Made by a program: the position numbers and the translations under genes
Part shown: positions 1-4,687 of the stretch, piece by piece
Layout: each line of letters starts with the position of its first letter
Position numbering within the stretch: the first letter of the stretch is position 1
Source of the DNA: a virus
Taxonomy: Duplodnaviria; Heunggongvirae; Uroviricota; Caudoviricetes
Direction: 5' to 3' (one strand)
IMG/VR virus record: IMGVR_UViG_3300013741_000045
Length of the DNA: 4,687 bases
The notes under the pieces: model-generated
What the model saw: the letters and a program-made list of their open reading frames with translations, nothing else
What the model was told of the DNA's origin: nothing
Databases searched by the model: none

Positions 1-617
1 TGCTGTTTGTCTTTTTTCACGCCACAGCGGGGATCGAGCTGTAACGCATGGTTGAGATGATTAAGGGCGGAAGCCGGATTGCTTTCACTCAGGACAGCGC
101 CAATCGCTTTATGCAGACGCGCCCGTGACTGGTCCGGCATATCCAGACCGTCTGTCAGCTCCAGCGTCTGCAGCAACAGATCGGCATCAAAGCCGGTAGC
201 GGCAAGCATTGCGCTCTGCGCTGCATCTGCCATTTCCTCTGCCAGCACGGTCTGCACGTTGCGGTTACCCAGAGGCATCACCCAGCCATGACGCAGGGCA
301 TGACGCCCGATCTCCAGCGCCCCGGCATAATCTCCGGCATCAATGCGCCACAGCATCACGTACATCAGCACGTCATCCTGTTGAGCGCCTCCGGCAGCCA
401 GGACGCCCTCCGCCCAGGCGGCATATTTCGGCAGCAGCTCCACCTTTATTTCCGCTTTTTTCACCGTGGACTGAACGCCCTTGAGACGGCGGCGGTCTTC
501 CGCCAGCTGCAGCAGCATCAGGTCATAGCCCGACGCGTGGCGAACACTGCCGCCCTCACGGGCGGCCTGTTCAGCCTGAACGCGCAGGCGATGCTGCCGT
601 GCGGGACTCAGGCTCAT
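1..617 (-). CDS. Terminase small (endonuclease) subunit, P2 gpM-like; partial, 3' end beyond the left window edge
   Basis: Hand translation of the minus strand from ATG at 617..615 gives 205 codons with no stop down to position 1 (MSLSPARQHRLRVQAEQAAREGG...DDVLMYVMLWRIDAGDYAGALEIGRHALRHGW...). This resembles P2 gpM as I recall it. It lies 3 nt downstream of the capsid gene stop, with GGAG 8 nt upstream of the ATG, matching the P2 order O-N-M. It is absent from the supplied ORF track because no stop falls inside the window. Confidence 0.85.
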   Translation of the reverse strand, partial: MSLSPARQHRLRVQAEQAAREGGSVRHASGYDLMLLQLAEDRRRLKGVQSTVKKAEIKVELLPKYAAWAEGVLAAGGAQQDDVLMYVMLWRIDAGDYAGALEIGRHALRHGWVMPLGNRNVQTVLAEEMADAAQSAMLAATGFDADLLLQTLELTDGLDMPDQSRARLHKAIGAVLSESNPASALNHLNHALQLDPRCGVKKDKQ

Positions 618-620
618 GGT

Positions 621-1679
621 TTACGCTCCGGCTTCTGCTGCGGCGGCGCTGAAATCACCAATCTGGATGTTTTCCACCAGTGCGGCGCAGCGGTAGTCCT
701 CAACCACATAGGCTTCATTAACGGATTCAAAGTTTTCAATCCGGTCACGTTTCGGGTTGTCGATAACTGAACGGCGGCGGGTGTCTTCCTGCCAGTAGAT
801 GGACAAGTTATCCAGACGGGTGATCAGCAGTGCATTCGGCGGGAAGAACGGCGCACGCACGGCCTGCAGGCCACCCATGCGTTTCTGACTGATGATCATA
901 TCGGCAGCGAGTTTTTCACTGTTTTCCTGCTCTTTGTTGACCAGTGGGAAATACTTGTCAGACAACAGTTCACGACCGCAAATCACCACCAGATCGTCAT
1001 CGTCCTGGTAGACCACGTCGATAAGCTCATTGACGGCATCCATCACCACGGCGTCCAGGTTGGCATATTCGCCACCTTTACCGACTTTCACCGCGCCCGG
1101 TGTGGTTTCACCGCCTGTGGTGGTGCTGCCCATGACGTGATCCGGTGCATCCTCACGGATTTTCTGCAGCCAGCGTTTGTTCACATCCTGCAGCAGCGGG
1201 TTTTCACTACGGTTGGAGGTTTTCGCACGCTTCACGCCGTTAAAGCCGATCATGATGCGGTCCAGTGCCTGACGTTTCACGATGGCGTCACGGATACGCA
1301 CCTGGAAATCCTGAAATTTCGCCCACAGGTCCAGCTTCGCGTAGGTCAGCACCGTGTCAAAGTTGGTCTGCTCGCATTTGTATTCCACATCGACCATCAG
1401 CGTCGGATCGACAGGTTCACGCTCTTTCGCGGTGGTATCAGTGGTTCCGGCAATGGTGCTGCCAACACCCAACCCCAGCAGCTGACCGGACTGCTCAGTC
1501 ACTGGCGTGACGTTAATCAGCGACAGGAAAGCGGCGGACTGCTGGATCTGGTCTTCCAGCGTCTGCTGTACAGACGGCTCCACGGTGAACTTGCTGGACA
1601 GTTCTTCAACTGCCACACCGTTCAGACGCGCCAGCTGCTGCAGGTAAGCGTTAAAAGCAAAGCGGGTATTCTTCTTCAT
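621..1679 (-). CDS. Major capsid protein, P2 gpN-like (352 aa)
   Basis: Complete ORF in the supplied track (MKKNTRFAFNAYLQQLARLNGV...KLDLWAKFQDFQVRIRDAIVKRQ...LAADMIISQKRMG...). Length and sequence resemble P2 gpN (about 357 aa) as recalled. It sits between the scaffold and terminase small subunit genes as in P2, with GGAG 11 nt upstream of the ATG. Confidence 0.93.
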   Translation of the reverse strand: MKKNTRFAFNAYLQQLARLNGVAVEELSSKFTVEPSVQQTLEDQIQQSAAFLSLINVTPVTEQSGQLLGLGVGSTIAGTTDTTAKEREPVDPTLMVDVEYKCEQTNFDTVLTYAKLDLWAKFQDFQVRIRDAIVKRQALDRIMIGFNGVKRAKTSNRSENPLLQDVNKRWLQKIREDAPDHVMGSTTTGGETTPGAVKVGKGGEYANLDAVVMDAVNELIDVVYQDDDDLVVICGRELLSDKYFPLVNKEQENSEKLAADMIISQKRMGGLQAVRAPFFPPNALLITRLDNLSIYWQEDTRRRSVIDNPKRDRIENFESVNEAYVVEDYRCAALVENIQIGDFSAAAAEAGA

Positions 1680-1695: not shown

Positions 1696-2529
1696 TCAGC
1701 AATTGGTCAGAGTGTCAGCGGGGGCGTTACCGCCTGTTGCACGCTGGCGGTAGTCCTGGCGGCTGTCTTCATGACTCAGCTTGTCCACCAGTTCGTTAAA
1801 GGCGGTTTGCTGTGCCTGCAGGGCAGTCTCCAGCTCAGACAGGCGTTCTTCCTGCTCAGACAGGGATTTTTCGGTGCGTGCGCTCAGGTTTTGCTGCTCA
1901 GTGGCGACCAGCTCCACGGCCTTATGCACATCAGAGAACCGGGCGTCATCGGACTGCTCTTTTTTGGTGAACAGCGCCGTGACACGGGCAAACAGGGACG
2001 GTTTGTCATCCTGGATTTCTTCCAGTTCGATCACCGTTTCCTCTGCAGCGGTAAAGAGATTGGCAGGATTCTGCTTGCGGTTTGCCAGCGGGTTATGGGC
2101 TGCACTGGCGCTGAATGTCAGCATTTCAGTGCCCAGACTGGCAGGGTCATCAGTGGCAGCCAGGCCGACCAGGTAGGCTTTGCCCGTATCAGCGAACTTC
2201 GGGCTGACTTCCATAGAGGTGAATAATTTCTGGCCTTTTTTCACCAGTTCCACCAGGGACTCCGTTGGCTCAACGTCGGCATACAGCGCCATCTTGCCTG
2301 CCAGCGGACCTTCCGTGATTTCTTCAGCAAACAGCGCCGTCACCTTGCCGTAGCGGTTAAAGGTGCTGTCCGGCAGATAAGACTTGATGTGCTCAAGGTT
2401 AATCAGCGCGGTATACACCGCCGGGTTGTAGCTGGCTGCCATCTGTTCCAGCCATTCACGCTGGATTTCGCGTCCGTCGGTGGTGGCACCTTCCACCCCG
2501 ATGCGAAAACGCTTTGCTTTCACTGTCAT
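1696..2529 (-). CDS. Capsid scaffolding protein with N-terminal protease domain, P2 gpO-like (277 aa)
   Basis: Complete ORF in the supplied track (MTVKAKRFRIGVEGATTDGREI...INLEH...LFTSMEV...YLVGLAATDDPASLGTE...ATGGNAPADTLTNC). N-terminal and C-terminal motifs match P2 gpO (about 284 aa) as recalled. GGAG lies 8 nt upstream of the ATG, and the gene is first in the leftward O-N-M series. Confidence 0.93.
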   Translation of the reverse strand: MTVKAKRFRIGVEGATTDGREIQREWLEQMAASYNPAVYTALINLEHIKSYLPDSTFNRYGKVTALFAEEITEGPLAGKMALYADVEPTESLVELVKKGQKLFTSMEVSPKFADTGKAYLVGLAATDDPASLGTEMLTFSASAAHNPLANRKQNPANLFTAAEETVIELEEIQDDKPSLFARVTALFTKKEQSDDARFSDVHKAVELVATEQQNLSARTEKSLSEQEERLSELETALQAQQTAFNELVDKLSHEDSRQDYRQRATGGNAPADTLTNC

Positions 2530-2671
2530 GAGCCGTGCTCCGTTAGAAAAAACTTACTGGAGCCTTATGGTTGCGGTGATGGGGGCAGTGAAACAATGCG
2601 CGGTATTTGTACCGACAACCACACAAACCGCAGGCGGGGAAAGCCTTCATTCAAGGCTGTAGGTTTGTGCC
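2530..2671. promoter_or_regulatory. Divergent late-promoter region between the gpO-like and gpP-like genes
   Basis: A 142-bp non-coding gap separates the divergent start codons at 2529 (minus) and 2672 (plus). In P2 the equivalent gap carries the divergent late promoters P_O and P_P. It contains a TGT-N12-ACA dyad at 2608..2625. Confidence 0.6.
2608..2625. promoter_or_regulatory. Ogr/Delta-type activator binding dyad (TGT-N12-ACA)
   Basis: Exact TGT accgacaaccac ACA at 2608..2625. The dyad centre lies about 55-60 bp from a weak -10-like hexamer (CATAAG on the minus strand, 2564..2569) upstream of the scaffold gene, consistent with the -55 activator-site geometry described for P2 late promoters. 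Confidence 0.5.
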
Positions 2672-3400
2672 ATGAACACCACACTGACACCCGCAGATCT
2701 CGATCCCCGTCGGCAGGCCATGCTGCTGTACTTTCAGGGATACCGCGTAGCCCGCATTGCTGAAATGCTGGGCGAGAAAGTTGCAACCGTTCACAGCTGG
2801 AAAAAACGCGACAAGTGGGGTGACTATGGGCCGCTGGATCAGATGCAGCTCACCACCGCCGCACGTTACTGCCTGCTCATTATGAAGGAGCACAAAGAAG
2901 GGAAAGATTTCAAAGAAATTGATCTGCTGGCGCGCCAGTCGGAGCGCCACGCGCGGATCGGCAAGTTTAACAATGGCGGCAACGAAGCCGATTTAAACCC
3001 TAACGTCGCCAACCGCAACAAAGGCCCGCGCCGTCAGCCTGAAAAGAATGTTTTCACCGATGAACAGATTGAGAAGCTGGAAGAAATCTTCCATTCCTCC
3101 ATGTTCAACTACCAGCGTCACTGGTGGGAAGCCGGAAAAACCAACCGCATCCGCAACCTGCTGAAGTCACGCCAGATCGGCGCGACCTTCTATTTTGCCC
3201 GTGAAGCCCTGATTGACGCCCTGCTAACCGGACGTAACCAGATTTTCCTTTCTGCCAGTAAGGCACAGGCGCACGTCTTTAAGCAGTACATCATCGACTT
3301 CGCCAAAGAAGTGGAAGTGGAGCTGAAAGGCGACACTGTATTTCCTCGGCACCAATGCCCGCACTGCCCAGAGTTACCACGGCAACCTGTATCTGGATGA
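2672..3400 (+). CDS. Terminase large subunit, N-terminal fragment (242 aa ORF; last ~20 residues are out-of-frame)
   Basis: ORF in the supplied track: [47 protein letters not shown]...[59 protein letters not shown] resembles the P2 gpP N-terminus as recalled. The tail [21 protein letters not shown] has no family-like sequence. AGG lies 8 nt upstream of the ATG. Confidence 0.8.
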
Positions 3401-4412
3401 ATATTTCTGGATACCGAAATTCCAGGAGCTGCGCAAAGTGGCTTCCGGTATGGCTATTCACAAAAAATGGCGACAAACCTATTTTTCCACGCCATCCAGC
3501 CTGACCCACAGTGCTTATCCGTTCTGGTCCGGTGCGCTGTTCAACCGTGGACGCAACAAAGCCGACAAGGTGGACATCGACCTGTCCCACAGCAATCTGG
3601 CCCCCGGCCTGCTGTGCGCAGACGGGCAATACCGCCAGATAGTCACCGTGGAAGATGCGGTGCGCGGCGGCTGTAACCTGTTCGACCTTGACCAGTTGCG
3701 CATGGAGTACAGCCCGGACGAATACCAGAACCTGCTGATGTGTGAGTTCGTGGACGATCTCGCGTCCGTGTTCCCGCTCAGCGAGCTGCAGGCGTGCATG
3801 GTGGACAGTTGGGAAGTCTGGACCGACTTTCATGCACTGGCCCTGCGCCCATTTGGCTGGCGCGAAGTGTGGATCGGTTATGACCCGGCAAAAGGTACGC
3901 AGAACGGCGACAGCGCCGGATGCGTGGTCATTGCGCCACCGGATGTGCCGGGCGGTAAGTTCCGCATTCTTGAGCGTCACCAGTGGCGCGGAATGGACTT
4001 CCGCGCCCAGGCTGACGCCATCAAAAAACTGACCGAACAGTATAACGTGACCTATATCGGCATCGACTCGACCGGCGTCGGTCACGGGGTTTACGAGAAC
4101 GTGAAAGCGTTTTTTCCTGCCGTCCGGGAGTTTGTCTACAACCCCAACGTTAAAAACGCCCTGGTACTCAAGGCCTACGACATTATCAGTCACCGCCGCC
4201 TGGAATTTGACGCCGGACACACCGACATTGCGCAGTCATTCATGGCAATCCGTCGCGCCACCACAGCCAGCGGCAACCGCCCGACCTATGAAGCCAGTCG
4301 CAGCGAAGAAGCCAGCCATGCCGATCTGGCCTGGGCAACAATGCACGCACTGTTTAACGAACCGCTGCAGGGCGAGTCCGCCAATGCCAGCAATATTGTG
4401 GAGATTTTTTGA
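3327..4412 (+). CDS. Terminase large subunit, C-terminal fragment (frame open from 3327; track ORF begins at GTG 3438)
   Basis: The second frame reads [69 protein letters not shown]...[22 protein letters not shown]...[28 protein letters not shown], resembling the central and C-terminal parts of P2 gpP. Its stop overlaps the portal gene start. Confidence 0.8.
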
Positions 4413-4687
4413 TGGGAAAGAGTAAGAAGAACCGCGCTGCGTCGACGAACCAGAACCAGCATAAAAGCCAGACTTCAGCCGAAGCATTCAGCTTCGGTGA
4501 TCCCGTTCCTGTTCTTGACCGCCGCGAACTGCTGGACTATGTGGAATGCGTACAGATGGATCGCTGGTATGAGCCGCCCGTCAGCTTTGACGGACTGGCA
4601 CGAACCTTCCGCGCCGCCGTGCATCACAGCTCACCGATTGCGGTGAAATGCAACATTTTGACCAGCACCTACATCCCTCACCCGCTG
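4412..4687 (+). CDS. Portal protein, P2 gpQ-like; partial, 3' end beyond the right window edge
   Basis: ATG at 4412 overlaps the terminase stop by 1 nt (TGATG), with GGAG 8 nt upstream. Hand translation gives 92 codons with no stop to the window end ([92 protein letters not shown]), resembling the P2 gpQ N-terminus. It is absent from the supplied track because no stop falls inside the window. Confidence 0.85.
   Translation, partial: MGKSKKNRAASTNQNQHKSQTSAEAFSFGDPVPVLDRRELLDYVECVQMDRWYEPPVSFDGLARTFRAAVHHSSPIAVKCNILTSTYIPHPL

Follow-up and report, generated by a model that had tools for sequence, protein, structure and literature searches.

The terminase large-subunit gene in a 4687-nt stretch of viral DNA, which was analysed as a whole and is called the window here, is laid out in two reading frames. 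The question is whether this gene, gpP, is a naturally divided gene, a broken gene or the product of a sequence error, and what the layout would mean for DNA packaging by the element that carries it.

The window and its relatives

From its gene content and order, the window is assigned to the head and packaging region of a prophage of the P2/186-like type (Peduoviridae). The following features were recognized (window coordinates):

1..617, minus strand: gpM, terminase endonuclease/small subunit; leaves the window at its 3' end, open throughout
621..1679, minus strand: gpN, major capsid protein, 352 aa; intact, gap-free against EC590
1696..2529, minus strand: gpO, capsid scaffold/protease, 277 aa; intact
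2530..2671, no strand: divergent gpO/gpP intergenic region, 142 nt
2672..4412, plus strand: gpP, terminase ATPase/large subunit; 1741 nt, in two frames
4412..4687, plus strand: start of gpQ (portal); 92 codons in the window, all open

The head-module synteny of Peduoviridae, with Q-P divergent from O-N-M-L, was present when the window was compared with annotated relatives. The stop codon of gpP and the ATG of gpQ overlap (TGATG). A preliminary description of this DNA had taken the capsid, scaffold and portal genes as intact. This held for gpN and gpO, and the exact gpO protein was recorded in 17188 blocks in a collection look-up; for the portal gene gpQ, the statement covers only the 92 open codons within the window.

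The best whole-window matches were E. coli prophages with 97–98% identity (EC590, strain W and others), and EC590 was the closest E. coli prophage compared over the whole window (97.9%). gpP was about 95% identical to that of phage Cartapus (Elveevirus) and 94–95% identical to those of Klebsiella prophages. Since the best matches of the window and of gpP were E. coli prophages, Cartapus and Klebsiella prophages, the host is most likely Escherichia or a close relative. The exact window sequence was absent from complete E. coli genomes. Judged by its domains, sequence identity and synteny, which all agreed, gpP is by descent assigned to the P2 gpP family of terminases.

Several side observations were made around these genes. 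A TGT-N12-ACA dyad at 2608–2625 in the gpO/gpP intergenic region is a candidate site for a late activator of the Ogr/B type. Its centre lies about 55 nt before a plausible transcription start of the gpO operon. We take this dyad to be the form of Ogr/Delta/B-type late-activator sites in P2-like late promoters. The number of such dyads in the window was not significant (3 vs 1.2 expected). No sigma-70-like promoter was found by scanning the same intergenic region, as is expected for activator-dependent late promoters. A 309-aa antisense ORF at 3291–4220 on the minus strand lies wholly within gpP and is a mechanical ORF; such antisense ORFs are expected opposite GC-rich coding DNA. Outside the window, relatives have a slot by the portal gene gpQ, before a DinI-like gene, with cargo that differs in nearly every relative (L003–L013): GmrSD_N (L005), AIPR (L010), an ORC-CDC6-like protein (L006), DUF4325 (L009) and DUF4145 (Cartapus). 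This slot looks like a variable accessory-gene hotspot of P2-like prophages, and such hotspots often bear anti-phage defence genes. The relatives are of the 186 type and carry DinI-like or SOS-modulator genes.

A 26-nt deletion in gpP

The gpP-like frame starts at ATG 2672 and reads through ...EVEVELKGD, with the D codon at 3332..3334. It is followed by 21 unrelated residues and by TGA at 3398..3400, and the ORF 2672..3400 encodes 242 aa. From 3327 the +1 frame is open, and it encodes the remaining gpP up to the stop at 4410..4412; the two frames overlap at 3327–3397. The preliminary description had given the same frames, with about 20 non-family residues before the first stop, and the terminase nature of both fragments was confirmed by strong Pfam terminase matches.

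The window (4687 nt) was globally aligned with the corresponding EC590 segment (4713 nt). The alignment contained 75 substitutions and one gap only. This gap was a clean loss of 26 nt, ATCCGATGGTGCTTCCCAACGGGGCC, between window positions 3332 and 3333, and the lost bases were positions 662–687 of the intact gene. The flanks of the junction were identical to EC590 from 3143 to 3649, which is 190 nt upstream and 317 nt downstream. An identical 26-nt gap was obtained against 13 of 13 relatives, each with an unbroken 1767-nt gpP. Since 26 is 2 modulo 3, the net shift is +1. Both this shift and a deletion of roughly 26 bp had been proposed in the preliminary description, the size as a guess, and the alignments with EC590 and the 13 relatives made the guess exact.

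The deletion drops residues P222–A229 (PMVLPNGA). D221 stays with a changed codon (GAT to GAC), and the original frame is lost from T230 on. In the +1 frame, the A of 'ATLYFLG' is read from GCG of the left flank and equals the intact A229 by coincidence only; true homology with intact gpP restarts at T230 (3333). The gene is thus divided as follows:

2672..3334, plus strand: 5' part of gpP, codons 1–221, with the Terminase_5 HTH and the start of Terminase_6N; original frame
3332..3333, no strand: deletion junction, 26 nt absent compared with EC590
3335..3400, plus strand: out-of-frame tail, 21 foreign codons and TGA (from the ORF list)
3333..4412, plus strand: 3' part of gpP, codons 230–588 and the stop, with the rest of Terminase_6N and full Terminase_6C; +1 frame

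The placement of the gap was ambiguous by 1 nt (A), and the exact microhomology was only 1 nt. The deletion ends formed an imperfect 5-nt repeat (GGCGA/GGCCA), with no homopolymer or tandem repeat. The junction had already been placed outside long homopolymers, and the EC590 alignment bore this out. No hairpin or quasi-palindrome that might explain the deletion was detected, as the intact region folded no more stably than shuffled sequence (z = −0.06). Slippage on the minimal microhomology is a possible cause of the 26-bp deletion.

Every relative examined that had a full-length gpP encoded it in a single ORF of 1767 nt (588 aa). The 1767-nt gene was found in Cartapus, vB_EcoM-813R9, EC590, ten further assemblies and, among the matches listed, Klebsiella phages. 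The length of gpP was also investigated in 60 evenly spread records of the 1231 matching E. coli records. A complete alignment was obtained for 51 of the 60, and all 51 spanned exactly 1767 nt. Records covering less than 80% of gpP made up about 4% of the matching E. coli records. H135 had appeared in the E. coli listing as a second split gpP; it was rejected, as its gene proved intact.

Compared with the gpP of Cartapus (YP_010663975.1) and EC590 (WP_058655988.1), the window gene had 95–98% nucleotide identity over the whole gene, the same order of Terminase_5, Terminase_6N and Terminase_6C, and the same divergence of gpM-gpN-gpO from gpP-gpQ. However, the window gene lacks codons 222–229 and two bases of codon 230, and its ORF is split in two frames. 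Comparison with homologues, which the preliminary description had asked for, defined the indel in this way. Since relatives with full-length gpP encode it as a single 1767-nt ORF, the two-frame arrangement is a lesion and not natural architecture.

Unlike its close relatives, the window gpP also has a 16-nt patch at 3929–3944 (+1 frame, intact codons 428–433). Seven substitutions were counted in these 16 nt, with the changes V429I and A433D and four synonymous changes. The patch was absent from the 13 close relatives, from complete E. coli genomes (best match 91.9% over 86 nt) and from INPHARED phages, and was not found in a metagenome scan. An identical 26-mer over the patch was present in a divergent P2-like IMG/VR contig (L014, 83% identity), while the flanking markers 3925 and 3972 were E. 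coli-type. On these sequence comparisons, the patch looks like a gene-conversion tract of 16–46 nt from a distant relative.

Consequences for the terminase

Intact gpP has three Pfam domains: Terminase_5 (residues 11–68), Terminase_6N (162–382) and Terminase_6C (410–571). In the N-terminal fragment, Terminase_5 (PF06056) was found at residues 11–67 (E = 3.6e-27, 94.5 bits vs a cut-off of 20.3), and Terminase_6N (PF03237) was matched at profile positions 1–69 only. The downstream 324-aa ORF matched Terminase_6N at profile positions 117–214. Terminase_6C (PF17289) was present in the +1 frame only, at profile positions 1–154 of 155 (E = 8.4e-51). The following features define the state of the ATPase domain:

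3167..3187, plus strand: Walker A-type motif SRQIGAT, residues 166–172; upstream frame
3387..3404, plus strand: Walker B-type motif LYLDEY, intact residues 248–253; +1 frame only
3438..4412, plus strand: longest start-codon ORF in the downstream frame, 324 aa, GTG start; putative product

SRQIGAT is taken as Walker A on the basis of what is established for the ATPases of T4-type terminases. The gene is interrupted within the ATPase domain, after Walker A and before Walker B. Walker B lies upstream of the first restart codon, GTG 3438, and is therefore in neither translatable fragment. From the positions of the two motifs relative to the break and to GTG 3438, it follows that no translatable product has the full ATPase, and that the nuclease domain is cut off from the DNA-binding N-terminus. 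A search of PDB sequences with intact gpP, made to place the deleted residues, returned a spurious collagen IV match only. Residues 222–229 presumably correspond to the '...NGS...' strand-turn before Walker B in T4 gp17.

In the window, gpP was not found as a single unbroken ORF of about 588 aa, nor was a complete Terminase_6N with both Walker motifs found in one polypeptide. For these two reasons, the window gpP is to be annotated as a pseudogene. T4- and P2-type terminases translocate DNA with the energy of ATP hydrolysed by the large subunit, whose C-terminal nuclease cuts the concatemer. On this basis, the window allele should be unable to package DNA. This statement would apply to the prophage acting alone, as a related co-resident phage can in principle package it. 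If the sequence is correct, an essential packaging gene has been inactivated, as in a defective prophage. The other parts of the prophage (integrase, repressor, replication, tail and lysis genes and cos) fall beyond the 4687 nt analysed.

A functional two-frame gene was considered, in which a programmed +1/−2 ribosomal frameshift joins the frames or an active terminase is naturally split. The overlap of the frames at 3327–3397 and an AGGAG sequence 10 nt ahead of GTG 3438 are in line with such a gene. However, no relative is arranged in this way, and every full-length gpP examined was a single ORF. To restore the conserved sequence, the shift would have to fall at 3332–3336, within GGC GAC ACT (3329–3337), and this stretch is not slippery. 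The frames meet in the context GGC GAC ACT GTA, and the zero-frame stop is embedded in GGA TGA A; neither is known as a +1 or −1 shift motif. Even a shifted product would lack 8–9 residues of the ATPase core, and neither Walker motif is present in the restart ORF. With the layout in no homologue examined and the junction in no other sequence of the collections searched, a programmed frameshift or a split functional gene was rejected and is considered extremely unlikely.

The AGGAG at 3423–3427 and GTG 3438 may form a fortuitous restart site, with a candidate 324-aa nuclease-domain product. By its position, restart at GTG 3438 could keep the coupling to gpQ and relieve polarity; the ATPase would not be restored.

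Origin of the deletion and comparison with known systems

The junction was searched for in several collections. In complete E. coli genomes, all full-coverage matches among those listed spanned 106 bp and not 80. The junction was not found in GTDB species representatives with either an exact or a degenerate pattern, nor was it found in IMG/VR, JGI metagenomes or PLSDB plasmids. The exact 242-aa and 324-aa products had no record in a collection that included NCBI and Logan assemblies. Because the junction and both products were unrecorded in the collections searched, the lesion is regarded as private, and for the same reason the deletion rests on one sequence.

The rest of gpP was close to intact alleles. 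Outside the 16-nt patch, the window gpP differed from the intact allele of relative L009 by 3 synonymous changes, and no private non-synonymous change was found. The 5' part (codons 1–221) had 0–3 substitutions compared with the EC590 and L009 alleles. With only 3 synonymous changes against L009, the window gpP appears to derive from a working gene that was inactivated recently. As gpP shows no other decay, either the deletion arose very recently or it is an artefact.

In the case of a sequencing or assembly artefact, the gpP of the organism would be intact (1767 nt), and the 26 nt would have been lost in assembly, consensus calling or polishing. The uniqueness of the junction to the window sequence in all collections searched, with neither product on record, is consistent with an artefact. 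The lack of any other sign of relaxed constraint in gpP agrees with it too, and fits a very recent event equally. However, the gap is a clean 26 nt outside any homopolymer or tandem repeat, with 1 nt of exact microhomology, and no unusual secondary structure was seen in the surrounding DNA. Typical platform errors are indels of 1–2 nt, and assembly collapse needs repeats of about k-mer length. A 26-nt loss outside homopolymers would therefore be unlike the usual base-calling or repeat-collapse errors, and an artefact is considered unlikely.

The lesion is thus probably a genuine, recent and strain-private 26-bp deletion that inactivates gpP of a P2/186-like prophage, a reading we hold with good confidence. 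The comparisons directly show where the lesion lies and how large it is, how the domains are split and that the neighbouring genes are intact; the reality of the deletion in the organism, the loss of function and the polarity on gpQ are what we infer from the evidence above. According to this explanation, the 26-bp loss would remove P222–A229 from gpP and shift the frame by +1. The gene would yield a 242-aa N-terminal fragment, in which the HTH domain and Walker A are followed by 21 junk residues, and at best also an internally started 324-aa fragment with the nuclease domain and without either Walker motif. Without a complete ATPase, the prophage alone would not be able to power cos-DNA packaging, and it would be defective for particles unless a co-resident relative supplied gpP. 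The premature stop would also leave about 1 kb of untranslated mRNA before the translationally coupled gpQ. Polar amber mutations in classical P2 genetics defined P and Q as one transcription unit, and for this reason the premature stop would probably lower portal expression.

The deletion might instead have been retained because a fragment is useful, or the element might persist as a helper-dependent prophage packaged in trans; this is considered very improbable. If a fragment were retained, the 242-aa HTH and Walker A fragment or the nuclease fragment from GTG 3438 could act as a dominant-negative subunit. Such a fragment would poison the packaging enzyme of P2/186-like phages that superinfect the host, or that of P4-like satellites, and the dead gene would become an exclusion function.

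If the deletion is genuine and recent, as preferred here, it is a clearly dated case of how prophage decay begins, with one small deletion in a gene that is otherwise unchanged. With gpP annotated as a pseudogene, the prophage should be scored as packaging-defective by itself and not as intact. For the host strain, this scoring affects the predicted inducibility and transduction and the predicted capacity to help P4-like satellites. The 26-bp allele was unrecorded, while the phenomenon is ordinary prophage decay and already known; the gpP deletion raises no new biological question.

A gpP lesion of this kind has precedent in RefSeq, where the gpP of another E. coli is annotated as a pseudogene and marked 'frameshifted'. 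In this strain, Eco_23-3571 (AC3R3S_RS14710), gpP of a prophage of the same type carries a deletion, and gpO and gpQ are still annotated. The pseudogene is about 1058 nt long compared with the usual 1767. Several unrelated-looking E. coli genomes (H153–H157) shared the same 5'-truncated gpP (query positions 310–1741), listed with 'late control protein D'. The shared truncation points to a large internal deletion, either recurrent or spread clonally, by which the tail end and the head end of a P2-like prophage became fused. The lesions of Eco_23-3571 and H153–H157 comprise hundreds of bases, whereas the window lesion is 26 nt in an otherwise pristine gene and is unshared.

Prophages that are defective through a broken terminase gene are well documented, and a related resident phage can mobilise them in trans (PMC2669165). 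Sp4 of E. coli O157 Sakai is terminase-defective, yet it is packaged in trans by the related Sp14 (PMC2669165). Unlike the window prophage, Sp4 is lambdoid, and its lesion is an IS element in the small-subunit gene nu1 and not a small deletion in the large subunit (PMC2669165). Trans-packaging was shown by experiment for Sp4 (PMC2669165) and is a conceivable route for the window prophage. The two prophages are alike in that their own terminase gene is disrupted, and Sp4 illustrates that such elements are common and that a related prophage with a matching cos site can still package them in trans (PMC2669165).
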